Below are positions 1,422 to 48,639 of a stretch of 64,000 nt of DNA, one piece after another (within the stretch, counting starts at the first letter, position 1; each line of letters starts with the position of its first letter). The DNA is from an uncultured virus (IMG/VR IMGVR_UViG_3300032220_001739). Its lineage: Duplodnaviria > Heunggongvirae > Uroviricota > Caudoviricetes. Position numbers and translations under genes: made by a program. The stretch is taken from the IMG/VR virus record IMGVR_UViG_3300032220_001739. One strand, 5' to 3'. Below the pieces are notes generated by a model. That model searched no databases. It was not told where the DNA came from and worked only from the letters and a program-made list of their open reading frames with translations.

Positions 1422-1442
1422 AACCGCTTAAAGAGTAATCCC

Positions 1443-1955: not shown

Positions 1956-2012
1956 GTCTTTATATATCCATTCTTATAAAAATTAAGTACATAGAAGGTG
2001 ATATATAGAGAT

Positions 2013-3008: not shown

Positions 3009-3017
3009 TTCATAGAA

Positions 3018-4436: not shown

Positions 4437-4467
4437 TCTAGCTCCGATATATAAATAGAAACAACAA

Positions 4468-20673: not shown

Positions 20674-20762
20674 TTTTCTATATATCAAAATCACATCCAC
20701 AACTGACCTTGTGACACTACTGGATCGAAATAATATTTCGGTTCACCAATATAAATAGAAAC

Positions 20763-20890
20763 GGTCAGGTGGCGGAAAGGGAGATTTATCCTAGGTAAGT
20801 CCCCGCGGTAGACGTGCCTCAATACCCTGGGGTGCTCACAGAAGAGGGTTAACAAAGGTGAGCGTACAGGTTCAATCCCTGGACTGACTA
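20763..20890 (+). ncRNA. tRNA-Leu-like scaffold RNA 1 (hairpin inserted in the D-loop, non-canonical anticodon arm)
   Basis: GGTCAGG-TGGCGGAA..GGTAGACGT...ACAGGTTCAATCCCTGG-ACTGACT-A. Confidence 0.7.
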
Positions 20891-23862: not shown

Positions 23863-24048
23863 ATGGAGAAGTTAATAACGAAATTAAAGACCTTGCAAGA
23901 CAGGCAAAAGGAATTAATGTCTATGATGTCAGAAGAAAAGTATGACAATTTTATTTCAGTTTTAAGGGCTAAAGGATATGCTGATAGCATTATAGAATTA
24001 GAGGCAAAAATAGAAGTTTTAATGGATGCTATATCCATATTAAGATAG
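23863..24048 (+). CDS. small coiled-coil protein
   Basis: 61-aa ORF with an A-rich leader. Confidence 0.55.
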   Translation: MEKLITKLKTLQDRQKELMSMMSEEKYDNFISVLRAKGYADSIIELEAKIEVLMDAISILR

Positions 24049-24090
24049 CGGTAAAACAATATACATCGGTGTTACTGCGGAATCCTGTTC

Positions 24091-24098
24091 TATATTTG
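24091..24098 (+). promoter_or_regulatory. Bacteroidota-type -7 box upstream of the RNA cluster
   Basis: TATATTTG in an intergenic gap; the -33 box is weak. Confidence 0.5.
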
Positions 24099-24161
24099 TA
24101 GAGTAATTAAAAACTTAGGCATGAAGGAAGAAAAAGAGTTTAAAATAAAAAAAGGGTAACT

Positions 24162-24263
24162 ATGATGGATCAAATCGGACACTTCGTTCTCTTTACAATA
24201 ATAGGATTGCTAATAGCAATGTTAGTATATCTAGCAGCATGGCAACCTAAAAAATGGAAATAA
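24162..24263 (+). CDS. 33-aa membrane peptide (not in the ORF track)
   Basis: MMDQIGHFVLFTIIGLLIAMLVYLAAWQPKKWK. Confidence 0.5.
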   Translation: MMDQIGHFVLFTIIGLLIAMLVYLAAWQPKKWK

Positions 24264-24295
24264 TGGGATACTGGCTCTGGGCAGATTGAAAACAC

Positions 24296-24320
24296 ACAGG
24301 TTAAAATCCTGTACTGATTA
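24296..24320 (+). pseudogene. degenerate 3' half (T arm plus acceptor strand) of the tRNA-like scaffold
   Basis: ACAGG-TTAAAAT-CCTGT-ACTGATT-A versus the consensus ACAGG-TTCGAAT-CCTGT-CCTGACT-A. Confidence 0.6.
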
Positions 24321-24322
24321 CA

Positions 24323-24479
24323 AAAATAAAACCTCAACAAATAAAGTTGTGAGTTGTATTGAAATAGCCAATTATAAGCCAACATAAAGCTGTTGGGTGC
24401 AGATGGAGTAATTAACCAGGAGCGCAGGCACTGATTGTGACGGTACAACAAATACCCCTCTGAGTTTGGGTTTTATTTT
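24323..24479 (+). ncRNA. structured spacer RNA A
   Basis: 11-bp closing stem AAAATAAAACC/GGTTTTATTTT; nested TTGTATTG/CGGTACAA, CAATTA/TGATTG and CCAACA/TGTTGG stems. Confidence 0.55.
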
Positions 24480-24485
24480 AAATAT

Positions 24486-24584
24486 AGTTAGGTGGCGGAA
24501 TTGGTAGACGCACAAGACGGGCGATGCATTTAAAACAGAAATAAGCCTGGTCGGTTTTTACAGGTTCGAATCCTGTCCTGACTA
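24486..24584 (+). ncRNA. tRNA-Leu-like scaffold RNA 2 (48-nt non-canonical middle)
   Basis: AGTTAGG-TGGCGGAATTGGTAGACGC...ACAGGTTCGAATCCTGT-CCTGACT-A. Confidence 0.8.
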
Positions 24585-24590
24585 CTAAAA

Positions 24591-24673
24591 ATAAGGTGAC
24601 TGCTACAGTCGTAAGGTTCCGGAACCGAGAAGACAAAAAGCCTAAGCATGCAGATGAGCTCGCATGGCCTTAT
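24591..24673 (+). ncRNA. structured spacer RNA B
   Basis: Closing stem ATAAGGT/GCCTTAT; hairpins GACTG/CAGTC, GGTT/AACC and CATGC/GCATG; directly abuts scaffold 3. Confidence 0.55.
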
Positions 24674-24775
24674 AGTCAGGTGGTGAAACGGTAAACGCAA
24701 GGACAGTGGGTTGAATAAATCTGCTTATAAAAGAGGTGTCCGAAAAAGTTGTAGGTTCGAATCCTACCCTGACTA
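24674..24775 (+). ncRNA. tRNA-Leu-like scaffold RNA 3 (52-nt middle)
   Basis: AGTCAGG...GTAGG-TTCGAAT-CCTAC-CCTGACT-A, with compensatory T-stem changes. Confidence 0.8.
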
Positions 24776-24789
24776 CAAAAAATTAAAGC

Positions 24790-24903
24790 ATGAATAAAAT
24801 TAAAAGAACTTATGATTATTATGAAAGATATTGGTTTGGTGGTTTATTAGAACCAATTCTTTTCTGGATGCCTATAATTTTACTAATAGCTAAATGGGTA
24901 TGA
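24790..24903 (+). CDS. 37-aa membrane peptide (not in the ORF track)
   Basis: MNKIKRTYDYYERYWFGGLLEPILFWMPIILLIAKWV; ATGA overlap with the next ORF. Confidence 0.5.
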   Translation: MNKIKRTYDYYERYWFGGLLEPILFWMPIILLIAKWV

Positions 24904-25076
24904 AAAGATTTATTCAATATAACACACAAATATTTTTAGCATGGCTAGTATTCATAGTATTCAGAAAACCAATGTCTAGCGATGCTATGAAATTGATTGA
25001 AAACTCTTACAAAGCAACAGATAGGGAAAAAAGATTACTTAGCAGAATAAAAAAGTTGAATAAGTTAGATTTTTGA
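24900..25076 (+). CDS. small hypothetical protein
   Basis: MKRFIQYNTQIFLAWLVF..., translationally coupled to the previous ORF. Confidence 0.5.
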   Translation: MKRFIQYNTQIFLAWLVFIVFRKPMSSDAMKLIENSYKATDREKRLLSRIKKLNKLDF

Positions 25077-25082
25077 TAAAAT

Positions 25083-25201
25083 AGTCAGGTGGCGGAATTG
25101 GTAGACGCTGCTGTGGGGCGACACCACTCTTTTAAAAACAGCATAAGCTCTTGCAATGATGTACACATTGCAAGGTACAGGTTCAAGTCCTGTCCTGACT
25201 A
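25083..25201 (+). ncRNA. tRNA-Leu-like scaffold RNA 4 (68-nt middle)
   Basis: Conserved ends; TGCTGT/ACAGCA stem around a 23-nt loop; 9-bp CTTGCAATG/CATTGCAAG arm. Confidence 0.8.
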
Positions 25202-25282
25202 CTCTGGGCTCAGTAAAGCCTCTTATCGTAAGATAACGTAACTGAAGTGGATAACCTAGAAATAGGTGACGCTCCACTATGG
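25202..25282 (+). ncRNA. structured spacer RNA C (two GNRA-capped hairpins)
   Basis: TCAGT..TTATC-GTAA-GATAA..ACTGA and AGTGGA..CCTA-GAAA-TAGG..TCCACT. Confidence 0.55.
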
Positions 25283-25362
25283 GGTCAGGTGGCGCAATTG
25301 GAAAACGCAACTCGCGGTGTACACAGAGGAGTGAATTACAGGTTCGAATCCTGTCCTGACTA
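25283..25362 (+). ncRNA. tRNA-Leu-like scaffold RNA 5 (29-nt middle, no 7-nt anticodon loop)
   Basis: GGTCAGG-TGGCGCAATTGGAAAACGC...ACAGGTTCGAATCCTGT-CCTGACT-A. Confidence 0.75.
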
Positions 25363-25578
25363 CACGTTCCGACTAATCATCGGATAGTAAGCCTCATACG
25401 ATGAGAAGTGGTGTGATAGCCGCAGAGGAGAGTTGAAGGTTCGTATATACAAAACCTTCCAGTTGACTACTGACGTCGGTAAAACCCTTCACGAGGGGAG
25501 CAAGACAGTCTATTCCTAACTCAGCAATGAGGACAGCCATAACACCTGTAAGTTGGATAAATAAGGGTGTTTTTATAT
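25363..25578 (+). ncRNA. structured spacer RNA D (about 215 nt, multi-hairpin)
   Basis: Hairpins TCCGA/TCGGA, CTCAT/ATGAG, GTGGT/GCCGC, GAAGGTT/AACCTTC, CCCTT/AGGGG, CTCA-GCAA-TGAG and AACACCT/GGGTGTT; no ORF. Confidence 0.6.
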
Positions 25579-25682
25579 AGTCAGGTGGCGGAATTAGTAG
25601 ACGCTAATAGTATGCCGGTAAGCTTAACACGAAACCGTGTGACTATGTGTTAATCATACAGGTTCGGATACTGTCCTGACTA
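25579..25682 (+). ncRNA. tRNA-Leu-like scaffold RNA 6 (53-nt middle)
   Basis: AGTCAGG-TGGCGGAATTAGTAGACGC...ACAGGTTCGGATACTGT-CCTGACT-A. Confidence 0.75.
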
Positions 25683-25691
25683 CTAAAATAA

Positions 25692-25762
25692 GGTCATATA
25701 GACAAATGGTAAGTCGTTAGTCTGCAAAACTAAAGGTATCTGTTCGAATCAGATTATGACCT
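25692..25762 (+). tRNA. tRNA-Cys(GCA)
   Basis: Canonical cloverleaf: GGTCATA/TATGACC, anticodon arm TTAGT-CTGCAAA-ACTAA, T arm ATCTG-TTCGAAT-CAGAT, U73 discriminator; CCA not encoded. Confidence 0.92.
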
Positions 25763-25840
25763 CAATTTAACAATAGATTGGATGTCCTAAAATGTCCTCT
25801 ACTTCGAGAACAATTACTTCGGGTAGTAATTAGTTACCCG

Positions 25841-26257
25841 TTACAATTCTTTAGAAAAGGTTAGACCCGCATATCCTCTCGAGAAATCGAAAGAGAAGTT
25901 TGTGTTTGGTATGTAAACTGATGCTCCTAAATATTTACTATTTCCAGTTTCATCCTGCCAATCGTCTACGTATATCTCAATTCCCTTGTTTGCCAATAAG
26001 TCTGAAGCTTTGGATATGAAATCTGGATCATCTGGCTTAAACTTTACGATCTGCGATTTTATTGACGAGTCCATTGATATCTTAGGTACGTTCAGCAGAG
26101 ATTTTTTAAAATCAGAATTCATCTTTAGGTAGTCGACTTTACCAAATTTTGGAGCCTCGATCTTAAAATTAGTTAGAGCCATTTTTGGATCTGGTTTAAC
26201 TGTGGTAGACTGCCCACCCTCATTTATAAAATCTTCGAAAAGTTTTATGTTTTTCAT
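25841..26257 (-). CDS. hypothetical late protein
   Basis: Leader MKNIKLFEDFINE; GATATATA at 26274-81. Confidence 0.75.
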   Translation of the reverse strand: MKNIKLFEDFINEGGQSTTVKPDPKMALTNFKIEAPKFGKVDYLKMNSDFKKSLLNVPKISMDSSIKSQIVKFKPDDPDFISKASDLLANKGIEIYVDDWQDETGNSKYLGASVYIPNTNFSFDFSRGYAGLTFSKEL

Positions 26258-26359: not shown

Positions 26360-26869
26360 ATGGAAAATCGAGTTGACGGTAACTGGAGAAGGCTAACAGA
26401 TTCACAAGAAATCGAATTGCTGTCTTATATTAAATCCTGGATGGACGAAAATCCGGGACACAAGATCTATATTGGATGCGACTCCCAAAACAAGGGTAGA
26501 TCTACAACTTATGCAACTGTCATAGTTCTCCACTATCCTAGCGGAGGTGGGCACGTCTTGTACAAAAAAGAGAAAATTGAAAAGGTGGCATCCAGTTTCG
26601 AGAGACTCTGGAAAGAAGTAGAGCTTAGTGTGGAAATTGCTAATCTTTTAATAGATTCAGGTCTAGGTAAACCCGATTGCATAGACGTCGATCTAAATCC
26701 AGATCCGAGATACAACTCAAATCAATTACTAAGAGCAGCTGTTGGTCTTATAGAATCCATGGGGATTCAGGCTAGATATAAATCGAAATCTCCATGGGCT
26801 ATTAGTATAGCTGACACCATGTGTAAAAATAAGGCCGGTAAGAAACCAAGAAAAAAACCAGTTAGATAG
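26360..26869 (+). CDS. RNase H-like YkuK/DUF458 family protein
   Basis: IYIGCDSQ...ERLWKEVELS...IDVDLNP...AD. Confidence 0.8.
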   Translation: MENRVDGNWRRLTDSQEIELLSYIKSWMDENPGHKIYIGCDSQNKGRSTTYATVIVLHYPSGGGHVLYKKEKIEKVASSFERLWKEVELSVEIANLLIDSGLGKPDCIDVDLNPDPRYNSNQLLRAAVGLIESMGIQARYKSKSPWAISIADTMCKNKAGKKPRKKPVR

Positions 26870-27162
26870 TGTCTTGCAAAGTAGTTCATTTTAGAAAGGA
26901 TCCCTATGATGTTTATATAGGAAGGGGATCTAAATGGGGAAATCCATTTTCTCATAAGGACGGGACAACGGCCCAATTTAAAGTTTCAAGTAGACAGGAA
27001 GCTATAGAAAGCTACAGAACATGGATAAAAACTCAGCCACATCTGATGGAAAGCTTATATGAGCTAAGGGATAAAACACTGGGTTGCTGGTGTAAGCCTC
27101 AAGGATGTCATGGTGATGTACTAAAAGAATTAGCCGACTCGTTGGGTCGTAATTTATTCTAG
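26869..27162 (+). CDS. DUF4326 family protein
   Basis: DVYIGRGSKWGNPF...LGCWCKPQGCHGDVL. Confidence 0.85.
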   Translation: MSCKVVHFRKDPYDVYIGRGSKWGNPFSHKDGTTAQFKVSSRQEAIESYRTWIKTQPHLMESLYELRDKTLGCWCKPQGCHGDVLKELADSLGRNLF

Positions 27163-27212: not shown

Positions 27213-27971
27213 ATGGCATATAGAATTCTTTTTCGTAGAGACACAGCAGCTAACTGGGCAACTAATAACCCTGTTCTATCTGCGGGTGAACCTGGATTTA
27301 CAACAGACACAAACATATTTAAAATAGGAGATGGAGTTACCGCTTGGTCTTCTCTTCAGGATATAAATCCTGCAGGCGTAACCGGCCCAACTGGTGATGT
27401 TAATTTCGATAATATAGCATCCGACGTTATTGCTTCTGCCGATGCTACTTATAATCTAGGAACTCAAACATATCAATGGAATAACCTTTACGTTGCGGGC
27501 AGCATGTATCTTGGTGATTCCACTGTTACAGTATCTGGTTCCGGAACTAATTTTATATTAGCAGGGGGAACAGGAAATCAGATAACTGGAAATCTTGAAA
27601 TATCTGGTGATCTTACTGTAAATGGGACTACTAATATTAGACCATATAAGGTATATTCCGCTCTGGTTTCTCAGACATCCTCTCTAGATCCAACGGATTC
27701 AGTTTTAGAAAGCACTTTTAATAGCACATTAACTTGGAACAGAGACTACACTGGTAGATATACAGTTTCCTCCTCTACGGAGTTTACGATGGATAAGGTA
27801 TTTGTGATGTTCTCACAGAATGCTGCTCTAGCCACTTCAACGACACCTTGTCATTATAATTGGCAGTGGTACGATTCAAGCACGCTGTATGTTGAATCTT
27901 TAAATGTTGCGGGAGCTACAGCGGATAACCTTTTCTCTGCTACTTCGGTTGAGATTCGAGTTTATAATTAA
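27213..27971 (+). CDS. fibre/structural protein with an Mtd-N-like N-terminal domain
   Basis: RRDTAANW...NPVL..GE.G..TDT..FKIGDG.TAW..L. Confidence 0.75.
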   Translation: MAYRILFRRDTAANWATNNPVLSAGEPGFTTDTNIFKIGDGVTAWSSLQDINPAGVTGPTGDVNFDNIASDVIASADATYNLGTQTYQWNNLYVAGSMYLGDSTVTVSGSGTNFILAGGTGNQITGNLEISGDLTVNGTTNIRPYKVYSALVSQTSSLDPTDSVLESTFNSTLTWNRDYTGRYTVSSSTEFTMDKVFVMFSQNAALATSTTPCHYNWQWYDSSTLYVESLNVAGATADNLFSATSVEIRVYN

Positions 27972-30167: not shown

Positions 30168-30365
30168 ATGATCAATATTAAACTAGAAGGTAAAATGTCA
30201 ATAGAGCAAGCTCTAAAGAAGTACAAGATGAAATTCTCTAAGCACAAGGTAATTGAAGAACTAAGAGAAAGAACGCATTACGTAAAAGATAGTGTGAAGA
30301 GGAGGGATGAATTAAAAAGAGCCGAATATCGGGAAACAAAGAGAAGAGAAGAAAACGGAGAATAA
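30168..30365 (+). CDS. rpsU: ribosomal protein bS21, Bacteroidota-type
   Basis: SIEQALKKYKxKF...ELRERxHYVKxSVKRR...AEY; Tyr at position 54. Confidence 0.88.
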   Translation: MINIKLEGKMSIEQALKKYKMKFSKHKVIEELRERTHYVKDSVKRRDELKRAEYRETKRREENGE

Positions 30366-30366
30366 C

Positions 30367-30393
30367 AAAAAAGCCTGCTTAAGCAGGCTTTTT
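30367..30393. terminator. bidirectional intrinsic terminator
   Basis: A6GCCTGC-TTAA-GCAGGC-T5. Confidence 0.9.
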
Positions 30394-30411
30394 CTTTGCT
30401 CCTTTAATTTT

Positions 30412-30927
30412 TTATTTAGGAAGAACATTAGACATAACTACCTTCAATATGTAAGGTGGATTGTTACCGTCGGTACCTGTTAATTTTCTTTTTCCCGTTT
30501 CATACGGATATTTTTCAGTCATAGCTTTGTTTTTGATCTTCTTCTTAATTATTTCCCTATCATTCCCAGTTTCAACATAAAGTTTTTCGTTTGGTCCTTC
30601 AGCTTGTGGTTCGTCTGCTATAACAACTTCAGCTTCACCTATATTTCTAACAGCTCTTAAAGCTTTATCTACAACGCTATTTTTACCGTCAGATGGCCAA
30701 TTAGCAGCAAAAGCAAGCATGGATGCGGCTTTTTTCTTAATGTCTTTCCTTGGTACAATCTTAGATGTTGCTAGAGCATTAACAAGATCATCCGCTAATT
30801 TTTTACCACTTGAATATTTAGAGGAGATCTTATCCTCATCTGGAACATTTAATAGTTTGTGCATTAAACCCTTCTCGGCCTCTTCTATATTTTGTACAAA
30901 GTTTTCAAAAACTATTAAATTTTTCAT
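30412..30927 (-). CDS. hypothetical late protein
   Basis: Leader MKNLIVFENFVQNIEE. Confidence 0.7.
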   Translation of the reverse strand: MKNLIVFENFVQNIEEAEKGLMHKLLNVPDEDKISSKYSSGKKLADDLVNALATSKIVPRKDIKKKAASMLAFAANWPSDGKNSVVDKALRAVRNIGEAEVVIADEPQAEGPNEKLYVETGNDREIIKKKIKNKAMTEKYPYETGKRKLTGTDGNNPPYILKVVMSNVLPK

Positions 30928-30969: not shown

Positions 30970-31161
30970 ATGGAAGCACTAAAAGAGAAGAGCCTAGAAA
31001 AAGAAATTGCTCACCTAAAAGCAGCTCTTGCTTTAGCAGTAGGTTCTTTAGAATCTATGAAATGGCTTATAAACTCAAAAGAGGATAGTGAGGAAAAGAT
31101 GGATCATATCAATTCTATCTTGGAAAGAGTTCTATCGGATATTGAAAAATTAGTAGACTAG
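30970..31161 (+). CDS. small helical hypothetical protein
   Basis: 63-aa ORF after TATAAT and an A-run. Confidence 0.55.
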   Translation: MEALKEKSLEKEIAHLKAALALAVGSLESMKWLINSKEDSEEKMDHINSILERVLSDIEKLVD

Positions 31162-31829
31162 ATCTTAACCGTTATCTTCTTGGTAATGTCACCAAGCTTA
31201 GATTCACCTGTTCTTTCGTAGGAGAGTGTAGAAAGTCCGTCCTTTAATATTCTCTCGGAAGAAGACTTCATTTGAAATAAGTTAAGCTTGTCTAGATTTT
31301 TTTGATATAATGAGTTTTCTATGAATCTCTCGTGAGACAGTGACCTGTATCTTCCCGGTTTCCTGAAAGTTCTCACGCCCATGATATTGCAACGAGTTAA
31401 TATATCGTCATCCTCTGCTCCCCATCCCCAGTATTCATTAGCGTATCCGTTTATCTTTTCGAAAGATTCTTTGTCGAACATGGTGACCCCACCGAAATAT
31501 CCGTCGTATGGTAATTTCCACCCAAATTGCTCGGCTTCAGTCGCCATGTGGGTTGGCGATTCGATTGGTGAATAGTCAGAGTTAACCGGAAGCATATCAA
31601 CGTCATGAAAGCAGAAATAATCACAATCTTTAGATTCATTAAACCCAACGTTTAGAAGCTTACCCCTGTTAAATGGTTTATCATCTTCCTGCTCAATGAT
31701 CAATATCTGAGTCCCGAATTCGTTTTCATCCTTTGGGAGGTATTTTAGATACTCCTCCATGAACGGTACAAATTGAGCTAGATGCTGTTCCCTGTTTCTA
31801 TAAGGTACTACTATCGACAGTTTCTTCAT
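31158..31829 (-). CDS. GT7 beta-1,4-galactosyltransferase-like protein
   Basis: IVVPYRNR, FNRGKLLNVG, FHDVD, YFGGV and YWGWGAEDDD motifs; start MKKLSIVV. Confidence 0.88.
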   Translation of the reverse strand: MKKLSIVVPYRNREQHLAQFVPFMEEYLKYLPKDENEFGTQILIIEQEDDKPFNRGKLLNVGFNESKDCDYFCFHDVDMLPVNSDYSPIESPTHMATEAEQFGWKLPYDGYFGGVTMFDKESFEKINGYANEYWGWGAEDDDILTRCNIMGVRTFRKPGRYRSLSHERFIENSLYQKNLDKLNLFQMKSSSERILKDGLSTLSYERTGESKLGDITKKITVKI

Positions 31830-31896
31830 GTCTATAAATACAGCAAATTCATCCTTTTGTTTCGAAACACCATTAGAATTTATAGTATAATATCCC

Positions 31897-32652
31897 ATGA
31901 AAGACAGCGATATAATTTTTATTACACCCACCCTACACACTAAGTGGCTGGGTTATCAAAGTGAGATAATAAAAAATCTTTTTCCGGGTAGCACTCACAT
32001 TATAGTAGACGGAAGACAAAATTGGCCCTATGCTTGGTTCTATTGGATGGACGAGATAAAAAACGTACCTGGTAAATGGTTCGTACACATAGACGAGGAT
32101 TGCTTCATAGAAAGCAAAGAAGAGTTGATAAGGCTCATTCAAAAAATGGAAGACGAGGGCTATTCTTTATCCGCAGTTTCCGACGGGTTCCACCATTACA
32201 GGGGTGCTAATGGAACGGCTATAAACTCGTTCTTCATGGTTGGAAAAAAAGAAGACTTTATGGGATCGAGCTTCGATCACAGCGACATTGAATTCAATTT
32301 CGATGGGAGGGGGTGGAGAAATAATAAAAATATAAATTTCGATCCGAGCAAACATACACATGACTTCCCATATCCACATGAAAAAATGGAGAATGGGGAA
32401 GACACTAGCTATGAACAGGAGCCCTATTATGCGCTTCTTTGGAAACTAAGAGAGGATGGGAAAAAATTCTACTACTTATATCCTAAATTTGACGAAAGAT
32501 TTAAGTCAACAAATCCAAGAATAGATTCCAGCTCAGAAGATATCGCTATACACATGTGGTATGCTAGGACATGGGAAAGCCCGATGGATGTACATGGAAT
32601 CCCTAATGTTGAAAGATATAGGAGGCTAGAAGAATATCTACTAAAAAAATAA
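31897..32652 (+). CDS. putative GT-A fold glycosyltransferase
   Basis: HIDEDCF DxD motif; lies in the glycan island. Confidence 0.5.
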   Translation: MKDSDIIFITPTLHTKWLGYQSEIIKNLFPGSTHIIVDGRQNWPYAWFYWMDEIKNVPGKWFVHIDEDCFIESKEELIRLIQKMEDEGYSLSAVSDGFHHYRGANGTAINSFFMVGKKEDFMGSSFDHSDIEFNFDGRGWRNNKNINFDPSKHTHDFPYPHEKMENGEDTSYEQEPYYALLWKLREDGKKFYYLYPKFDERFKSTNPRIDSSSEDIAIHMWYARTWESPMDVHGIPNVERYRRLEEYLLKK

Positions 32653-32674
32653 ATCTATCGAAGTAAAAATACTG

Positions 32675-33442
32675 ATGACTAATATGAAAAAAGGAATAAC
32701 CTATTTAACCTCATCGAATTACGGATATATCAGATTCTGTATATCTTCAGTTAAGAATTTCCATAATATATTCGGGAAACAAAATAAGCTAATTGTCCAG
32801 TGCTTAGATGAAAAAACCTTTGATGAGCTAGATGAACTATTGAAAAATTTAGAGTCTAGCAATATATTTCTGGAGAAAGAATATGGGGGTCCTATAGAAT
32901 TTCAAAATTTTTACAGCAACGGATTTATTCAGACCGTGTATAAGAAATTCACATTAGTATACAATAAGCTAAAAGAAAATCAATCTGTTTACTTTTTCGA
33001 TTCCGATGTTCATTTCTTCAGCGACCCAACCGATTATATTTTAGAGATGCTAGAAAAAAACGATCTAGTCTTTCAACAGGATGCTCCTTTAACTGATAAT
33101 CACGAGATAGGAGAGACTTACGTGTGCACAGGGAACTTCGCAGCAAAGAATTCAGAGGAATCACTGAAATTTATGGAGAAAGTTATATCGAAATTTGACG
33201 GTCTAAAAAACGACCAGGAGGTTGCTTACGAATATCTATATAGCTCTTGTCCAGGTAACGACATTAGAAATTATCCAAACGCAAAAATGGACATAATAGA
33301 CCCTCATAGGTACCAAAATGGATTCGATGCATTTAGATCCGGCTGGTATAAAAATCCCGATGTAGTCTGCGTTCATGCAAATCATATGGTGGGCATAGAT
33401 AACAAATTAAATGCTTTTAAGACATTGGGGGTTGAGCTATGA
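32675..33442 (+). CDS. nucleotide-diphospho-sugar transferase (GT77-like)
   Basis: FFDSDV, CTGNF, NDQ and VHANH...K motifs. Confidence 0.7.
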   Translation: MTNMKKGITYLTSSNYGYIRFCISSVKNFHNIFGKQNKLIVQCLDEKTFDELDELLKNLESSNIFLEKEYGGPIEFQNFYSNGFIQTVYKKFTLVYNKLKENQSVYFFDSDVHFFSDPTDYILEMLEKNDLVFQQDAPLTDNHEIGETYVCTGNFAAKNSEESLKFMEKVISKFDGLKNDQEVAYEYLYSSCPGNDIRNYPNAKMDIIDPHRYQNGFDAFRSGWYKNPDVVCVHANHMVGIDNKLNAFKTLGVEL

Positions 33443-34239
33443 TAACGTGCTCTTCAATAGGATATAACGGCAGACTAGCAAATCAGATTTTCCAGTTTGC
33501 ATCTACCATTGGTGTTGCAAGAAACTCGAGATATGATGTTAAGTTCCCGATAGAGAATTTTGTAAGTGGTAATCCTCATGACTATAACGGGGGTAAACTT
33601 TTAGATTGCTTTGATATACCAGAAGACTATTTTTTACAGATGGAAAAGATTGGAAGGGATATCAGATACCAATATCTAGAGAAAGATCTCTCCTACGATT
33701 CTTCTTTAGAATCAATACCTGATTTCGTTGATCTGAGAGGGTATTTTCAAACTGAAAAGTATTTTATTAAATCAGAGAGTGAAATAAGGGGGTGTTTAGG
33801 TTTCAAGGAATCTGTAAAATCAATGGGCGAATCCGTAGCTCAAATACCAGAAATGTCAGTTTCGGTTCACGTAAGAAGAGGTGACTATACCCAATTTTCA
33901 GACCACCACCCAACTCAGAAGATTGAATATTATGTCGATTCGATGTCTAAATTTGACGGGATACCTAAATTTATATTTTCCGATGATATCGAGTGGTGTA
34001 GAGAAAACCTCCAATCAATAGGGAATGATATTTTTTTGGTCGAGTGTGACGACCCATTCGCTAGCCTCTATCTTATGTCAAAATGTAAACATCATATAAT
34101 AGCAAATTCTTCCTTTAGCTGGTGGGGTGCTTGGCTTTCAGAATCGAAAGGAAAGGTCATAGCCCCCTCCATGTGGTTTGGTAATTCAATAAAGAAGGAT
34201 ACTAAGGATCTTTATTGCAAGGACTGGGAAACTATATAA
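33439..34239 (+). CDS. GT11 alpha-1,2-fucosyltransferase
   Basis: GRLANQIFQ, HVRRGDY, FSDDIEWC and NSSFSWWGA motifs. Confidence 0.9.
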   Translation: MITCSSIGYNGRLANQIFQFASTIGVARNSRYDVKFPIENFVSGNPHDYNGGKLLDCFDIPEDYFLQMEKIGRDIRYQYLEKDLSYDSSLESIPDFVDLRGYFQTEKYFIKSESEIRGCLGFKESVKSMGESVAQIPEMSVSVHVRRGDYTQFSDHHPTQKIEYYVDSMSKFDGIPKFIFSDDIEWCRENLQSIGNDIFLVECDDPFASLYLMSKCKHHIIANSSFSWWGAWLSESKGKVIAPSMWFGNSIKKDTKDLYCKDWETI

Positions 34240-34250
34240 AAAAATACAGG

Positions 34251-34952
34251 ATGGAAAAAATAGGAATCCTACTTCCAGTTTACAACGATGAGAAATATAT
34301 TGAATTTTGTTTGAAAAGCATAAAGAGACAGAATTACAAAAATTTCATCTGCCTTATAGGTTTTAACGGAACTAGTGACGGAAGTAAAAAGATAGTTAAA
34401 AAAACAATAGGTGATGATAATAGATTTATAATTTTTGATTACGGTGAGGATAAAGGTAAATCTATAACTTTAAACAAGCTTATAAAAGAAGTGCAAGCCC
34501 AGTATTTATGTCTAATGGACGGCGATGACTACTGGACACCCAATAAATTAGAAAGACAGATACCCTTTATCGGTAAACATGACGTTATAGGGTCGTTGTG
34601 TAATTACATGGACGAGCATAATAACACAACATCGACTATAAGACTACCCGAATTTGATATGGGTATAAAGATGTGGATAGAATCTATCAAAAATCCAATA
34701 GTGAATCAGTCATGTCTATTTAAAAAAGATGACATTATTGAAGCAGGTGGATGGAGATCAGATAAAGAAACTATAGAAGATTTTGATATGTGGATAAGAC
34801 TCGCAAGAGGAGGGAAGACCTTCTATAATATACAGGAACCTCTAGTTCATCACAGGATACATAGTAATAGCAATTTCAATTCAAATCCAGACCAAGGTGA
34901 TAGACTTAAACTAAATCTAATAATCACTCATTTTCAAAATCAAATACGATAA
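34251..34952 (+). CDS. GT2 glycosyltransferase
   Basis: LLPVYN, MDGDD, KLERQ and EDFDMW motifs. Confidence 0.88.
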   Translation: MEKIGILLPVYNDEKYIEFCLKSIKRQNYKNFICLIGFNGTSDGSKKIVKKTIGDDNRFIIFDYGEDKGKSITLNKLIKEVQAQYLCLMDGDDYWTPNKLERQIPFIGKHDVIGSLCNYMDEHNNTTSTIRLPEFDMGIKMWIESIKNPIVNQSCLFKKDDIIEAGGWRSDKETIEDFDMWIRLARGGKTFYNIQEPLVHHRIHSNSNFNSNPDQGDRLKLNLIITHFQNQIR

Positions 34953-34955
34953 AAT

Positions 34956-35597
34956 ATGCTAATAAAATTTGATACGATAGTAAAAAAATACGGCATACCT
35001 AAGGGTATAATACACTTGGGTGCGCATTTAGCTGAAGAGCTAGAAGATTATCTGCAATATGATCAAAAAAATGTTGTGTGGATAGAGGCTAATCCTGATC
35101 TATACAGCAATCTAGAGGAAAGAGTTAATAATGCGGGCCATCTATCTTTTTGCGAATTGCTATCAGACGAGGATGATAAGGATATGAGCTTTAATATAGC
35201 TAAGAATCATTACAATGGCAATTACCAATCCTCCTCTGTTTTAGATTTCGGAACACATTCAGTTCACCATCCGCATATAGTAATGGAGGGTAGCTTAATT
35301 TTAAGATCTAAAAGGATAAGCACAATTTTTTCAGAGAATAAAATTAGCTTCGATGATTATAACTTCGTAAACATAGATTTACAAGGATATGAATTACCCG
35401 CTATAAAAGGATTTGGCGATGCCATATCTAACATGGATTACATATACACTGAAGTAAATACGGGGGAGGTCTATAAAGGATGTACTAAAATAGAGGAGCT
35501 TGACGAATATCTGGGTTCATATGGGTTTCAAAGAGTTGAAACTGAAATGACCGATGCAGAATGGGGTGATGCTTTTTATATAAAAATTAAAAATTAG
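34956..35597 (+). CDS. FkbM-family methyltransferase
   Basis: HLGAH..EE, WIEANP, IDLQGYEL and WGDAFY motifs. Confidence 0.85.
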   Translation: MLIKFDTIVKKYGIPKGIIHLGAHLAEELEDYLQYDQKNVVWIEANPDLYSNLEERVNNAGHLSFCELLSDEDDKDMSFNIAKNHYNGNYQSSSVLDFGTHSVHHPHIVMEGSLILRSKRISTIFSENKISFDDYNFVNIDLQGYELPAIKGFGDAISNMDYIYTEVNTGEVYKGCTKIEELDEYLGSYGFQRVETEMTDAEWGDAFYIKIKN

Positions 35598-35601
35598 CAT
35601 A

Positions 35602-36447
35602 ATGAGATTTTTTTGCGAAGGTCCGTGTCATCATAAAAATACAATAGGGTTAAATCTCATGATGAGTGAAGGCATGGATGTAGATCTATCATATTCACCA
35701 AATAAGGAATATGATTGGATTGTTAATTTCAGTGAATTTAAGACTTATCCAAATCACAGCGGTGGTGTTATATACGGGCCTCAGATACTATTCCCGACCA
35801 TACCAGCATCATCAGTACCTAATGTTTACGGAAAAACATATTGTAATCTTCTCTCTGACTGGCTAGTTGATTTAAACCTGGATATAAATCCGGATATAAA
35901 ATCAATAGCTCTTCCTTTTGCGGTAGATGTAAATAGATTTAGGCCGTCGGGGAAAATAGGTAAGCCTGTCATATATTTTAAAAACATAAGAACTGACATA
36001 TTGCAATCAGTCCTTGATAAATTAGGAAATGATTTCATAGTGATTAGATATGGTGGGTATTCGGAGGATTATTATTTAAGATCAATAGCTGAAGCACCGT
36101 ATGTTATCTGGTTGGGGCGCCACGAGAGTCAGGGGTTTGCACTACAGGAAGCATTAAGTTGCGATACACCAATTTTTGTTATAGATGTATCATCTTTAAG
36201 AGATGAAATGGGATCCGGCGGGGATAAGCCTTGGGGTAATTTTTTACCTGGCCATCCATTAAAAGCAACAGCGGCTTCTTATTTTGACAATAGGTGCGGT
36301 GTAATATCATCGATCGAGTCCTGGGAAGAACACATTGATGATTTTATATTGAACACCAAGCATTATTCACCAAGGGAATTCGTAATGGAGACACTTTCTC
36401 CGCGAGCATGTTATGAGACCTGGATTAGAAAATTAGATAGTCTGTAA
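35602..36447 (+). CDS. GT-B-like glycosyltransferase
   Basis: AVD...F.P and ESQGFALQEALSCDTP (Ex7E) motifs. Confidence 0.6.
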   Translation: MRFFCEGPCHHKNTIGLNLMMSEGMDVDLSYSPNKEYDWIVNFSEFKTYPNHSGGVIYGPQILFPTIPASSVPNVYGKTYCNLLSDWLVDLNLDINPDIKSIALPFAVDVNRFRPSGKIGKPVIYFKNIRTDILQSVLDKLGNDFIVIRYGGYSEDYYLRSIAEAPYVIWLGRHESQGFALQEALSCDTPIFVIDVSSLRDEMGSGGDKPWGNFLPGHPLKATAASYFDNRCGVISSIESWEEHIDDFILNTKHYSPREFVMETLSPRACYETWIRKLDSL

Positions 36448-36458
36448 AATTTAGCGTA

Positions 36459-37085
36459 ATGAAAAATCTATGCATAATAACTTCAGTTATAAACACATCA
36501 AGTAATCCTCTAAGTTACTCATCTACCAGATCAATTTATAACGAGACCGAAAGATTCGATCAAACCAAGCTAACTATAGACAGCGTGAGAAGCTATATAA
36601 AGAATTGCGAAATATTGTTTATAGAATCATCACAAATTAGTTCTAATTATGAAAATGATATAGAAAAAATGGTAGACCATTACTTTAGAACAGGTGAAGG
36701 GATAAGATCTAAGATAGACGGTCCACATAAGGCTTCAGGTGAGGCCTCACAGATCAGGGAGGGACTTAAATTTATAAACATTAGCAATTATGACCACATT
36801 TTTAAGATCTCCGGGAGATATAGGATAAATCAAAATTTTATATTGGATGATTATATGATTGAGGATAATGTTTTTCTAGAAACCGAAGATGGCCAAAAGT
36901 TAGCAACTGTTTTTTATAAAATATTCAACAAGGAATTCTATTTAAAAGCATTAGATGCATGCTCGGAGAGCTCGGATATGTTAGAATTGAATTTTAAAAA
37001 TATATTTGGCCACGATTTCAAAAAAGTAAAGATGCTGGGTGTAGAAGGGAACGTCAGTGTAGATGGTAATTTTATAAACTGGTAA
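36459..37085 (+). CDS. hypothetical glycan-cluster protein
   Basis: ITSVI...ERFDQT...FKISGRY. Confidence 0.6.
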   Translation: MKNLCIITSVINTSSNPLSYSSTRSIYNETERFDQTKLTIDSVRSYIKNCEILFIESSQISSNYENDIEKMVDHYFRTGEGIRSKIDGPHKASGEASQIREGLKFINISNYDHIFKISGRYRINQNFILDDYMIEDNVFLETEDGQKLATVFYKIFNKEFYLKALDACSESSDMLELNFKNIFGHDFKKVKMLGVEGNVSVDGNFINW

Positions 37086-37088
37086 AAC

Positions 37089-37748
37089 ATGGATAAGATA
37101 GTAGCAATAGGGGATAGCCACTGTGATATTTTCAACACACACCCCAGCAGGAAAAGGGGTATCGGTATAGATAAAAATCTATACGATTTTTTTGATTGTA
37201 GATGGCTTGGTCCAATTACTTTCTGGAGGATCTGCAGGGATAGGGAGACTTCTCTAGATTTTGATAACGGTGTGTCGTACAATCCCTCTCCCGGGTGTGA
37301 AACAAATTCTAAATTAAAAGAAGGACAAAATGTTGTTTTATTTTTTGGCGAGATAGATGTAAGGTGCCATATATTAAAAAGCGACGATTATAAAAGTACC
37401 GTTGATGATATGGTTCTCCAGATGTCTGAATTTATAAAAAAATACAGAGATAGATATAAAATACACATGTCTTCTATATTGCCTCCCATGAGAGAATCGA
37501 CCTGCTCGTCTCACAATTCAGAATTACCTTTCGTTGGGAGCGATAGCTCTAGATCGGAGGTAACCTTATACTTTAATAATAAAATAAGAGAGATGTGCTA
37601 TACTCTATCTATTGGATATTTCGACGTGTATGCAATCTACGTAGATGACGAAAATATGTTAGATCCTGATAAATCCGACGGAATAGTTCACGCTACAAAG
37701 AACGAATCTCTAGAGGGTTACATAAAAAATTACTTTAACATAGTGTAA
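37089..37748 (+). CDS. SGNH-hydrolase-like protein
   Basis: IGDSH, GEIDVR and DGIVH motifs. Confidence 0.65.
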   Translation: MDKIVAIGDSHCDIFNTHPSRKRGIGIDKNLYDFFDCRWLGPITFWRICRDRETSLDFDNGVSYNPSPGCETNSKLKEGQNVVLFFGEIDVRCHILKSDDYKSTVDDMVLQMSEFIKKYRDRYKIHMSSILPPMRESTCSSHNSELPFVGSDSSRSEVTLYFNNKIREMCYTLSIGYFDVYAIYVDDENMLDPDKSDGIVHATKNESLEGYIKNYFNIV

Positions 37749-37760
37749 AATAAAGATAAA

Positions 37761-38717
37761 ATGAAAAATAAAAGAATATTGATAATAGGCGGGACTGGAG
37801 CACTAGGTAAAACCCTCATAAGAAGATACCAGGCACTTAATGATATTTTAGTTGTCAGTAGAGACGAGCACAAGCACGTTGCTCTGGAGAAAGAGGAATG
37901 GCTGGATTCTTGCAAAGTAAAATTCAGAATAGGCGATGTAAAGGATATTAATTCTCTTAGAGATTCCATTGAGGATTATAAACCAGATGTGATAATAAAC
38001 ACTGCAGCCTTGAAACATGTGCCTATCTGCGAGGACAATCCTTATGAATCCGTAAATGTAAACATAATAGGACACCAAAATCTAATACAATCGGTAAAAA
38101 GGTCTAATCATAGGATAGAAACATTAATATTTATTAGCACAGATAAAGCATGCAAGCCTATAAACGTTTACGGTATGTGCAAGGCTATATCGGAAAGGCT
38201 CTATATAGAATACGCAAGTCAGCAAAATGATATTAAGGTTTGCCTAGTTAGATACGGTAACGTTTTAGAGTCAACCGGGTCCGTAATACCTTTTTTCAAA
38301 AAAATTCTAAACGACGGTAAAACTGAATTACCAATAACTGATAACAGGATGACCAGGTTCCTATTAACGCTAGATCGAGCAACAGATCTGATAGATTGGG
38401 CATATGCAAATGACACACATGGAAAAATAGCAGTCCCTAAAGTGGAATCTTTTTCTATAGTATCAATAGCAAAAGCACTTTTTAAATGGAAGTGCATAGA
38501 AAATGGCAATGTAAATATTATCGGTATAAGGCCAGGTGAAAAGCTACACGAGGAGATGATATCGGACATAGAATGGATGAGAACGATAGACACAGGGGAG
38601 AACTATTTAATAACTAATGATATAGTAAAGACAGAACCTAAATCTTATAACTCTTATGACTCCCTTATGGACGATTCTCTAGTTTACGATTTTCTAAAAC
38701 AAAATGGAATAATATAA
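37761..38717 (+). CDS. UDP-GlcNAc 4,6-dehydratase-like protein (PseB/CapD family)
   Basis: GGTGALG, AALKHVP, STDKA, RYGNV and GIRPGEKLHE motifs. Confidence 0.85.
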   Translation: MKNKRILIIGGTGALGKTLIRRYQALNDILVVSRDEHKHVALEKEEWLDSCKVKFRIGDVKDINSLRDSIEDYKPDVIINTAALKHVPICEDNPYESVNVNIIGHQNLIQSVKRSNHRIETLIFISTDKACKPINVYGMCKAISERLYIEYASQQNDIKVCLVRYGNVLESTGSVIPFFKKILNDGKTELPITDNRMTRFLLTLDRATDLIDWAYANDTHGKIAVPKVESFSIVSIAKALFKWKCIENGNVNIIGIRPGEKLHEEMISDIEWMRTIDTGENYLITNDIVKTEPKSYNSYDSLMDDSLVYDFLKQNGII

Positions 38718-38720
38718 AAA

Positions 38721-39383
38721 ATGGAAGAATTCGAAAACAAAATGCCACATGACTATTATGGTACTAAAGTGGTTGAAAAATTTTCTGAGCATGATCTGGA
38801 TAAAATCGACTACGAGACACAGTTCTATTTCAGAAATCCAAAAATAAAATACAAATTATCTCTGGACCATAAAGAGGTTATAGAATTTTTTATTAGGTTA
38901 CTAAAACCCAAAAATTTTATAGAAATAGGAACTCAATTTGGAGAAACTACAAACCAAATAATCCATTTGATACCCGGTGATTATTATGCGGTGGATATTT
39001 TTATACACGATAATATGAGATTTCTATCCAATAAATTTCAAAATTTAAAGCTATTTCAGAATTCCTCTGATGATTTCTTTAGCAGCCAATTTGACGGAAA
39101 AATGTTTGAGATGGCTTTTATAGACGCATCACACAATTATGAGGATACATTCAGAGATTTTATGAATGTGAAAGATTTTATAGTACCCGATGGAATTATA
39201 TTTTTCCACGACACATATCCAGCTAATTTAGATGAAACACATCCGGATTTATCAGGGGATTGCTATAAGCTTCCTGAAAAAATTAGATTGGATTATAATA
39301 TGGAATTTGAAATAATAACACTACCTGTTAGCCCGGGCTTGTCGATCGCTAGAAAAATCAAAAGAAATATCGGGGATGAATAA
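38721..39383 (+). CDS. class I SAM methyltransferase (Methyltransf_24-like)
   Basis: IEIGT..G, FIDASH.YE and FFHD motifs. Confidence 0.8.
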   Translation: MEEFENKMPHDYYGTKVVEKFSEHDLDKIDYETQFYFRNPKIKYKLSLDHKEVIEFFIRLLKPKNFIEIGTQFGETTNQIIHLIPGDYYAVDIFIHDNMRFLSNKFQNLKLFQNSSDDFFSSQFDGKMFEMAFIDASHNYEDTFRDFMNVKDFIVPDGIIFFHDTYPANLDETHPDLSGDCYKLPEKIRLDYNMEFEIITLPVSPGLSIARKIKRNIGDE

Positions 39384-40221
39384 TTTTTGTTTTATAATAC
39401 CTTCGTACTGTGAAACGGATCTTCATGGTTTACAGTTAAGAAGATGTATATCCTCGATTAGAAGATGGCACGATAACTTGATCGTAATCATAGATGATTT
39501 TTCATCTATAGATGTTAAAGAATATACCTCTAATTTTCAAAACATAAAGATATTGAAATCCCAGATCAAGGGGGCTGGCGACATGGTAACATACCTTAAT
39601 TTTAAAAATATCGAGGGGTTTAAAAATGCCGTGATATTCCAGGATAGTATGACACTAGAAAACCCACTAGATGGGGTTAACGATATAGATCAGGTAATTC
39701 CTATCTGGTACTTCACTAATCACCGCCACCACTGGAGCATAATACCAGAACCCGAAACTGAATATAATCTTGCAAACGGTATAGAGTTCCATGACGATCT
39801 GATGATTGACTGCATCAAAAAAATGATACTAAAAGAGGATTTTAGGGACTGGGCAATCGGAATATATCACCAGAAAGAAAAGTGGTCGGGCAACATAGGA
39901 TGCCAATCTATAATAGATAGGGATTTCCTGTCTGAACTAGATGAAAAAACAGGTATTATAGATCTTATGTCCAGTATGAATAATAATAGACTAAGAAGAG
40001 TTGCAGAAAGCTTATTTCCTCTAGCTTGCCAGTTCGTAATTGGTGACTCTATAGTAAATAAAGGATACGATGGTCTCTATTATGACGGCATAAACCCGCA
40101 AAAAGGATTTGTGACATTTAAAGCTTGCGATTTAGGGCTTGGCGAATATCAAGATACGGTACAGCAGGTTTGCAAAAATAAATATTTTTCAAAAGTAACA
40201 TTTAACAGAAGACCACAGTAA
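39376..40221 (+). CDS. putative GT-A fold glycosyltransferase
   Basis: IIPSY, RCISSIR, IIDDFS and FQDS motifs. Confidence 0.55.
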   Translation: MNNFCFIIPSYCETDLHGLQLRRCISSIRRWHDNLIVIIDDFSSIDVKEYTSNFQNIKILKSQIKGAGDMVTYLNFKNIEGFKNAVIFQDSMTLENPLDGVNDIDQVIPIWYFTNHRHHWSIIPEPETEYNLANGIEFHDDLMIDCIKKMILKEDFRDWAIGIYHQKEKWSGNIGCQSIIDRDFLSELDEKTGIIDLMSSMNNNRLRRVAESLFPLACQFVIGDSIVNKGYDGLYYDGINPQKGFVTFKACDLGLGEYQDTVQQVCKNKYFSKVTFNRRPQ

Positions 40222-40242
40222 AAAATTTTATCAATAAGCTCA

Positions 40243-43538: not shown

Positions 43539-43551
43539 TATAAAGAAGTAT

Positions 43552-44361: not shown

Positions 44362-44372
44362 AAAGTAAAAAA

Positions 44373-46312: not shown

Positions 46313-46323
46313 TATAAAAGATA

Positions 46324-47900: not shown

Positions 47901-47913
47901 TTCTAATATACAA

Positions 47914-48636: not shown

Positions 48637-48639
48637 AAT

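Follow-up and report, generated by a model that had tools for sequence, protein, structure and literature searches.

An array of tRNA-Leu-type frames and structured RNA modules in an uncultured phage, with counterparts in the tRNA clusters of T5 and T4

The transfer RNA (tRNA) clusters of bacteriophages T5 and T4 contain stable RNAs that lie directly beside true tRNAs. In the T5 record AY543070, RNA1, RNAI and RNAIII (30284-30644) are contiguous with tRNA-His, and the record annotates the three as stable RNAs of unknown function. In T4, the small stable RNAs rnaC and rnaD (species 1 and 2, respectively) lie downstream of tRNA-Arg, in the order tRNA-Arg, rnaD, rnaC, with gaps of 1 and 6 nt. Here, we analyzed a 64,000-nt stretch of DNA from an uncultured virus (IMG/VR record IMGVR_UViG_3300032220_001739), hereafter called the window. 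By reading the sequence and running scanners, we found on its plus strand, from 24261 to 25762, one degenerate and five full tRNA-Leu-type scaffolds (S0 to S5), along with four non-coding spacers (RNA A to RNA D), two tiny open reading frames (ORFs) and a real tRNA-Cys. An initial annotation, made from the sequence alone, had described this array as a possible cassette of small RNAs punctuated by tRNA mimics, with a repeat-spacer logic.

The T5 cluster has the same kind of layout. T5 RNA1 (144 nt, a "tRNA-like stable RNA") is a Leu-type frame with a 47-nt insert, and S1 to S5 share its combination of Leu-type D arm, T arm, acceptor stem and large insert within a phage tRNA cluster. RNAI and RNAIII, about 107 nt each, come directly after RNA1 and are followed by a real tRNA, like the modules of the window. 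On the covariance model that we built for the window's frame, T5 RNA1 reached 26.8 bits, about the same as the true tRNA-Leu of T5 (26.4 bits). Unlike the window, T5 has one frame copy rather than five or six, and the acceptor and T-stem sequences of its RNA1 are different; a model of RNA B found no match in T5. In T4, small stable RNAs likewise abut a tRNA within the tRNA region, and rnaC ends in a T arm and an acceptor-like 3' portion that scored 22 bits on the frame model, but T4 lacks a repeated frame with variable inserts and lacks an array. The array is a variant of the stable-RNA arrangement known from T4 and T5, and not a new repeat-spacer system.

Processing punctuated by tRNAs is known from mitochondrial transcripts, from MALAT1-mascRNA and from the tRNA-miRNA units of gammaherpesvirus MHV68, where the tRNA shape recruits RNase P and RNase Z and thereby sets the ends of the neighboring RNA. 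Those systems are eukaryotic, whereas the tRNA shapes in the window carry a cargo of their own, and we infer the cuts. Ponchon and Dardel reportedly engineered tRNA scaffolds for RNA expression. In such scaffolds, the anticodon arm is swapped for an RNA of interest, which the cell processes and stabilizes, and synthetic tRNA-guide RNA arrays exist as well. A frame that encloses RNA B in another locus (L297, described below) is a natural counterpart of these constructs; the engineered scaffolds are man-made, whereas the design seen here is natural, widespread and based on tRNA-Leu.

Two further groups of phage RNAs are worth comparing. GOLLD and ROOL are found near tRNA genes. PMC12286853 describes both as unexplained structured phage-associated RNAs; they are much larger (hundreds of nt), and their Rfam families had no match in the window's array. 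According to PMC10879173, theta ribozymes, which resemble the hepatitis delta virus (HDV) ribozyme, lie within 5 nt of phage tRNAs, often tRNA-Leu. Like RNA A to RNA D, they are small structured RNAs a few nucleotides from phage tRNA ends. The four modules of the window are other folds, matched by no HDV-like or other ribozyme model.

The tRNA-Leu-type frame and its inserts

A repeat finder detected a 32-nt unit, comprising the T arm and the 3' acceptor strand, six times in the array, and a 44-nt unit, comprising the 5' acceptor strand and the leucine-type D arm, four times. When the five full scaffolds were aligned, roughly the first 25 nt and the last 27 nt were common to all, and between them lay an unalignable insert of 29-70 nt in the place of the anticodon arm. 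Each scaffold is therefore a constant acceptor/D/T tRNA frame around a variable insert of its own. The scaffolds had initially been called constant, which holds only for the outer 25 + 27 nt; each also contains a variable insert that is itself conserved. All of S1 to S5 keep the Leu-type D arm (3-bp stem and GGAAUUGGUAGA loop), the T arm and the acceptor stem.

The frame covariance model was built from 32 copies, in which G18, G19 and the GTTC of the T loop vary hardly or not at all. S1 to S5 scored 65-75 bits on it. As a control, we searched 1.09 Mb around 80 unrelated phage ClpB-like genes, where the highest scores were those of three hits at 37-41 bits. The frame thus has the acceptor, D and T arms and the elbow nucleotides of a cloverleaf. 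The Rfam tRNA model recognized S4 with 44 bits only when 15 nt were skipped at the anticodon arm and S1 with 37.9 bits only when 40 nt were skipped there, and it gave S2 16 bits over 24701-24775. Compared with shuffled sequences, S3 and S5 folded with z of -2.93 and -2.27.

The anticodon-stem features of a decoding tRNA (7-nt loop, U33, anticodon and purine 37) are lacking in the scaffolds. Inspection of sequences and folds by eye revealed no 7-nt anticodon loop with U33 in any of the five, and ARAGORN called none of them. Its sole tRNA call in the whole window was tRNA-Cys(GCA), at 25692-25763, whose 3' end is followed by CAA and not by CCA.

To describe the frame from copies that had not been selected by it, we used 83 frame-model hits, 76 of them distinct, from loci fetched by the RNA A or RNA D motifs. 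Across the 76, 98.1% of cells were paired, and all 15 frame pairs showed double changes. The same base pair occupies acceptor positions 2-7 in 64-67 of the 76 copies and position 1 in 56. U stands at -1 in 63 copies, and C follows A73 in 74, with A-rich sequence after it as after the window's tRNA-Cys. Because of these three properties, the flanks of the frame resemble those of a tRNA gene.

The inserts show conservation as well. That of S3 is conserved in L053 (L numbers denote loci in other contigs), where its long hairpin carries two compensatory pairs. Between S2 and its relative in L041, the insert is partly conserved and two T-stem pairs are compensatory. We considered kissing-loop palindromes (GUGUACAC, UGUACA, AUGCAU and AAGCUU in the window) as an insert feature and rejected them, since 6-nt palindromes are depleted in 78 inserts (33 versus 61.9 in mononucleotide shuffles). 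A search of the rest of the window for antisense targets gave a longest complementary run of 14 nt, versus 13-16 nt in 30 shuffles.

The exact 22-nt 3' part of the frame occurs in at least 136 viral contig stretches. Among the matches listed, there are often 2-7 frame copies per contig, within tRNA clusters, and ARAGORN misses them or assigns odd (e.g. 4-letter) anticodons; a few family members look like real tRNA-Leu (ARAGORN: caa, taa, aag, cag). The 136 loci listed hold at least 264 matches to the 3' part, 99 of which have the 5' part 60-260 nt upstream. At least 79 unique full frame copies were obtained, with hypervariable inserts that are mostly 18-130 nt and in some cases longer. In a lake DNA run (X3), the summed contig depth was 1306-4483 for the constant frame parts versus 16-19 for DNA unique to the phage, and many contigs join both frame halves across foreign inserts. 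Given this depth, the frame family is highly abundant in the lake community sampled.

When one genome was taken for each of 185,579 prokaryote species, the 3' frame part turned up in 25 stretches on 22 contigs, all of them from metagenome-assembled genomes or uncultured bins. For this reason, the frame is no copy of a known cellular tRNA. Eleven of them bear names that we take to belong to Bacteroidota, which at most hints at a Bacteroidota host, as the binning of phage contigs is unreliable. Neither 24000-26000 nor S4 had a blastn match among 50,697 phage records, and S3 at E up to 10 matched only the generic Leu D arm of annotated tRNA-Leu genes.

RNA modules A to D

The 3' motif of RNA D occurs in 60 viral loci, 40 of them distinct, and RNAalifold on 27 sequences gave 24 pairs, 15 of them compensatory. 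In its pseudoknot, a G>A change in UUGGAUA is accompanied by a C>U change in UAUUCCU (L141, L143 and L194), and long stretches predicted to be unpaired are nearly invariant. The 3' end of a frame lies 136-236 nt upstream of the motif in 45 of the 60 loci (regular expression with up to 4 mismatches), and three more (L151, L152 and L161) have variant frames recognized by eye. The other twelve copies stand free, each beginning downstream of an ORF or of a hairpin that resembles a terminator. Where RNA D follows a frame, it begins at C|ACG or C|GCG, one base past the discriminator A73. After the last hairpin of RNA D (window 25545-25578), many free copies (L144, L146, L149, L161, L166 and L187) have a run of T, whereas the window has UUUUUAUAU; this hairpin may also serve as an intrinsic terminator, possibly leaky, ahead of S5 and tRNA-Cys.

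The RNA A motif was found in 13 viral loci. Its neighbors there are a true tRNA-Leu together with a frame, tRNA-Ser with tRNA-Glu, or frames, and some copies have no such neighbor (tRNA types read from the flanking sequence). RNAalifold on eight sequences predicted 38 pairs, 20 of which are compensatory. The outer stem is among them, which bears out the closing stem initially proposed for RNA A. Relatives of RNA B are present at nine viral loci, six of them distinct; seven sequences gave 23 pairs with 7 compensatory, and the remaining sequence is invariant. A model of RNA B further identified a divergent member in L138 (70-161, 33 bits), whose helices are kept through changed pairs. As the initial annotation had noted, the closing stem of RNA B ends at 24673, the base before the S2 acceptor.

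RNA C was found at three viral loci, two of them near-identical to each other and one near-identical to the window. It is directly followed by a frame in all its loci, and the copy in L199 has no tRNA-like element upstream. In L197, two compensatory pairs differ in the GAAA hairpin (by eye).

Covariation among homologues, whose absence the earlier proposal had named as a refutation, is thus present in three of the four spacers, and RNA A, RNA B and RNA D are genuine structured RNAs of families found in other phage tRNA clusters. Rfam cmscan, which had been suggested for the spacers, matched none of these RNAs to a family other than tRNA, in window 24000-26000 or in seven other loci. Neither the frame family nor modules A to D turned up in the literature that we searched, which did not extend to subscription journals or to the older T4 and T5 papers.

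The same modules occur both free and enclosed by a frame. RNA B has six distinct free instances, in which a frame or a true tRNA (Glu, Gly, Tyr or Asp) lies 0-11 nt away. In L297, the RNA B sequence is itself the frame insert, and a 53.2-bit frame hit (1462-1599) spans it; the same holds for L298 and L302, whose flanks around RNA B are identical. When 87 inserts were compared with all loci by masked BLAST, a second module of this kind emerged. The insert of the frame in L097 (204-322, minus strand) recurs in L010 (2081-2156, minus strand) with 82% identity over 76 aligned columns. In L010, the copy has a 10-bp closing stem of its own and comes after a 3' end that resembles that of a tRNA. From these sequences, spacers and frame inserts seem to be drawn from one pool of modules. 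Since the same module can sit between frames or tRNAs or inside a frame, the frame would be both punctuation and carrier. The proposed repeat-spacer logic did not survive this comparison, as true tRNAs also serve as neighbors and RNA D, RNA A and RNA C also occur without an adjoining tRNA.

Another conserved module, about 75 nt long (AGGAGAGUCGC...CGUCCUGUAGU), lies between true tRNAs and beside RNA B in L294, L295 and L296. It suggests that phage tRNA clusters hold more uncatalogued RNA families.

Array layout and genomic surroundings

The features of the array are listed in Table 1. The element order, the sizes and the terminal tRNA-Cys agree with the initial annotation, and scaffolds and RNAs do alternate.

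Table 1. Elements of the array and one outlying scaffold, in window coordinates
Feature	Position	Strand	Basis
Micro-ORF, 33 aa, hydrophobic core	24162..24263	+	ORF list, translation; directly 5' of array
S0, degenerate half scaffold	24261..24321 (T arm and 3' acceptor strand 24295-24321)	+	81% match to 3' constant part
RNA A, member of a conserved phage structured-RNA family	24322..24485	+	own closing stem
S1, tRNA-Leu-type scaffold, 46-nt insert	24486..24584	+	scaffold model 74.9 bits
RNA B, highly conserved module of ~83 nt, closing stem	24585..24673	+	viral relatives, RNAalifold
S2, scaffold variant, T stem GUAGG/CCUAC, 52-nt insert	24674..24775	+	scaffold model 65.1 bits
Micro-ORF, 37 aa, C-terminal half hydrophobic	24790..24903	+	ORF list, translation
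Micro-ORF, 60 aa, probably a real gene	24894..25076	+	synonymous changes in relative
S3, scaffold, 67-nt insert (small hairpin and 9-bp long-arm hairpin)	25083..25201	+	scaffold model 68.7 bits
RNA C, 81-nt module, two tetraloop hairpins (GUAA, GAAA)	25202..25282	+	viral relatives
S4, shortest scaffold, 29-nt insert (4-bp stem, 15-nt loop)	25283..25362	+	scaffold model 74.1 bits
RNA D, pseudoknotted structured RNA, ~215 nt	25363..25578	+	viral relatives, covariation
S5, scaffold, 51-nt insert	25579..25682	+	scaffold model 69.6 bits
Real tRNA-Cys (GCA), last element of array	25692..25762	+	ARAGORN, Rfam 70.1 bits
Extra solitary scaffold copy, outside array	20763..20890	+	scaffold model 31.2 bits, E 3.7e-5 (window + L213)

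The stop codon of the 33-aa micro-ORF overlaps the start of S0. We compared this ORF with a close relative in DNA run X3, which has lost the first ATG and kept the second, and found one F>V change and one synonymous change. In the 60-aa micro-ORF, all four nucleotide differences from the X3 relative are synonymous, and it is probably a real gene. The 37-aa micro-ORF had no family match in PHROGs or Pfam. Hydrophobic stretches are present in the peptides of all three.

The solitary scaffold has inserts in both the D loop and the anticodon region. A T4-type late promoter box, TATAAATA, occurs at 20750-20757, and the scaffold starts 5 nt downstream. This box is depleted in the window (5 matches versus 10.9 expected), and at least two of the other three plus-strand copies stand 10-11 nt before a gene start (4468 and 10206). 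Upstream of the array, a 12-nt fragment at 24080-24091, GAATCCTGTTCT, resembles the junction of T arm and acceptor in the scaffolds and may be a decayed scaffold copy; it overlaps the region of the "-7 box" discussed below.

Among the window's genes are a RecA-type (UvsX-like), a DnaB-type (gp41-like), a Mre11/Rad50-type (gp46/47-like) and a gp15-like gene. By these genes, the source is a large T4-like phage. The DNA runs in which the window stretch occurs are labelled lake, freshwater or plain metagenome. From 31158 to 49623 lies a glycan-biosynthesis cluster of about 18 kb, an unusual bulk for a phage, with many glycosyltransferases (families 2, 6, 7 and 11), epimerases, dehydratases, a GDP-mannose 4,6-dehydratase and FkbM-type methyltransferases.

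The genes adjoining the array encode an RNase H-like PF04308 protein, a DUF4326 protein, a tail-fibre-like protein with an Mtd_N domain and a ClpB-like ATPase, the first two just 3' of the array at 26360-27162. Relatives of PF04308 lie near scaffolds in four other loci of the at least 136 listed, which is too few for a partner. With the window's own member, this family counts five, and the largest protein family next to scaffolds in the 136 loci has seven distinct members. A search via the PF04308 protein gave no syntenic relatives, and one via the ClpB-like protein gave 80 loci, none with an adjoining array. The Mtd_N domain opens two proteins, at 27213-27971 and 63447-63998. It is the N-terminus of the major tropism determinant, known from targets of diversity-generating retroelements; no reverse transcriptase was seen among the window ORFs scanned. 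The 73 window ORFs scanned likewise included no RNA-handling enzyme, TROVE protein or Cas protein.

Proposed processing of the array and alternative explanations

We consider it probable that the array is a multi-gene operon of small RNAs and tRNA, belonging to a large T4-like freshwater phage, that is cut by host tRNA-processing enzymes. One plus-strand transcript, or a few, would carry the frame RNAs, the modules, the peptides and tRNA-Cys. At each tRNA-shaped element, the 5' cut would be made by host RNase P and the 3' cut by RNase Z or exonucleases, releasing frame RNAs, modules and a short mRNA with defined ends. The predicted products are five non-decoding tRNA-Leu-derived frame RNAs and one degenerate copy; each frame RNA would keep the acceptor stem, Leu-type D arm, T arm and A73 and display its own folded insert in the place of the anticodon and variable arms. 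Further products would be the four structured modules A to D, two or three tiny membrane-type peptides and tRNA-Cys. RNase P, RNase Z and the CCA-adding enzyme need an acceptor/T minihelix, the elbow and tRNA-gene-like flanks. Because the frame keeps what these enzymes need, a polycistronic transcript cut at each tRNA shape would be the simplest mechanism. The anatomy of the locus, its conservation and covariation, the nearness to tRNAs, the free or embedded state of modules and their presence in RNA libraries are observed; joint transcription, cutting, stable products and whatever role these may have are what we infer.

Contigs from the RNA libraries of three studies match 24034-24569 with 0-2 differences and span RNA A. 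They do not include 24613-25016, most of RNA C and RNA D, or the flanking genes, although contigs cannot show absence. As for the tRNA-like processing sites of the initial annotation, the idea gains from finding the same RNAs beside tRNAs or their look-alikes in other phages, as would be expected if tRNA-processing enzymes set their ends, and from the annotated stable RNAs that T5 and T4 have in the same layout; the scaffolds, however, are not mere punctuation.

Several observations weigh against an operon of this kind. The RNA-library matches are contigs, which cannot show transcript ends and may contain DNA. No promoter was found for the array, sigma-70-like sites being at chance level (8 versus 9.5 expected), and no terminator-like site was found for it on the plus strand. 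The host-type -7 box reported at 24091 lost its weight, as TANNTTTG occurs 72 times in the window versus 67.6 expected, at chance level, and the paired -33/-7 pattern has no match there. S0 reached only 16.7 bits (E 0.09) on the frame model. It has a possible 5' strand, UAAUGGG, that would pair at 6 of 7 positions, it lacks a D arm, and its minimum free energy fold has no tRNA-like helix. The near-invariant acceptor sequence exceeds what RNase P or RNase Z needs, which hints at another partner or at recent spread. Because RNA D stands free in twelve loci, tRNA punctuation is not obligatory.

The folding of single sequences also counts against it. The spacers had been said to fold almost completely, yet they do not fold clearly better than shuffled sequences (z from -1.0 to -2.0). 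In tests with 200 shuffles each, RNA B (z -1.03, 32 of 200 folding as well) and RNA D (z -1.22, 24 of 200) were no better than shuffles, and RNA A (z -1.96, 9 of 200) and RNA C (z -1.99, 6 of 200) were marginally better. With only three near-identical relatives, RNA C also offers little variation to test.

A broader reading of the same locus is possible, and we put it forward tentatively. Phages would share a pool of small structured RNA modules that move between a free state, closed by a stem of their own, and a frame-embedded state. These would be combined with a universal tRNA-Leu frame that acts as carrier, processing handle and perhaps passport (to RNase P, the CCA-adding enzyme, leucyl-tRNA synthetase (LeuRS) and EF-Tu), and at least RNA B and RNA D, whose unpaired nucleotides are near-invariant, would be ribozymes or binders of conserved host machinery. 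If true, phages would have their own natural version of what engineered tRNA scaffolds and tRNA-guide arrays do.

Self-cleavage could also process the array, with the spacers, above all RNA D and RNA B, as new ribozymes that act as theta ribozymes do beside phage tRNAs. The long, nearly invariant unpaired stretches and covarying pseudoknot of RNA D, its start one base after the scaffold's A73 and the near-invariance of RNA B across phages would fit such a role, as would the position of theta ribozymes within 5 nt of phage tRNAs, often tRNA-Leu (PMC10879173). We nevertheless regard it as unlikely. No Rfam 15 ribozyme family matched 24000-26000 at E up to 10, a search made with no dedicated descriptors, and at E up to 0.1 none matched the seven loci where further members of the families lie. 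The hammerhead-like GAUGAGAA in RNA D has neither the C3/U4 core nor GAAA after stem II (judged by eye), and the twelve free-standing copies of RNA D have no upstream tRNA to be released from. A cassette system at the DNA level, with the frame halves serving mainly as recombination or mobility sites that spread inserts among phages and RNA processing as a secondary matter, is quite unlikely in our view. It would account for a frame conserved in sequence and not just in shape, for modules in different flanking contexts, and for the depth in run X3 (1306-4483 versus 16-19) with contigs that join the halves across foreign inserts. The conserved positions, however, are the tRNA elbow and helices, i.e. 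the mark of selection on RNA, and in the 136 loci listed we found no recombinase or recurrent protein within 3 kb of the scaffolds. Such mobility would in any case be compatible with the processed operon.

Finally, the scaffolds could be working or recently disabled tRNA-Leu genes, with odd or expanded loops, introns or decaying duplicates, separated by ordinary inter-tRNA DNA. Annotated phage tRNA-Leu genes share their D arm, ARAGORN assigns tRNA-Leu to some family members, whose anticodon loop is plausible for Leu, and bacterial LeuRS does not read the anticodon. We hold this explanation to be very unlikely, as neither ARAGORN nor inspection by eye recovered a tRNA or a 7-nt loop with U33 from the five window copies. 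At 29-70 nt, the inserts fall well below the length of self-splicing introns and are themselves conserved with compensatory changes; decay would not leave the frame nearly invariant in hundreds of contigs; and the spacers are conserved structured RNAs.

Two known types of locus were tried and rejected. A CRISPR-like array does not fit spacers of 81-216 nt from families common to several phages, and no Cas domain was found in the 73 ORFs scanned; the Rfam model CRISPR-DR21, whose threshold is 48 bits, scored 19.9 bits on the opposite strand. A mimic of the YrlA or Y RNA type was dismissed, with no RF02553 hit in the window and no TROVE domain among the ORFs scanned; the only YrlA hit, in L297, had 26.1 bits against a threshold of 69.

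The stable RNAs in the tRNA clusters of T4 and T5 have gone unexplained for decades, and this locus shows that they are no oddity of two model phages. It reveals a large modular repertoire, in which a strongly conserved tRNA-Leu-derived frame is combined with hundreds of different inserts and in which modules are free or borne by the frame. Covariation is clear in at least three further structured-RNA families of this repertoire (RNA A, RNA B and RNA D), and a fourth (RNA C) has few relatives. Concrete short RNAs of 83-215 nt, with alignments and predicted ends, are now open to study of their processing, charging, self-cleavage and partners, and T5, which can be cultured, has the same architecture. 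If the frame is a natural carrier, this would explain the success of engineered tRNA scaffolds.

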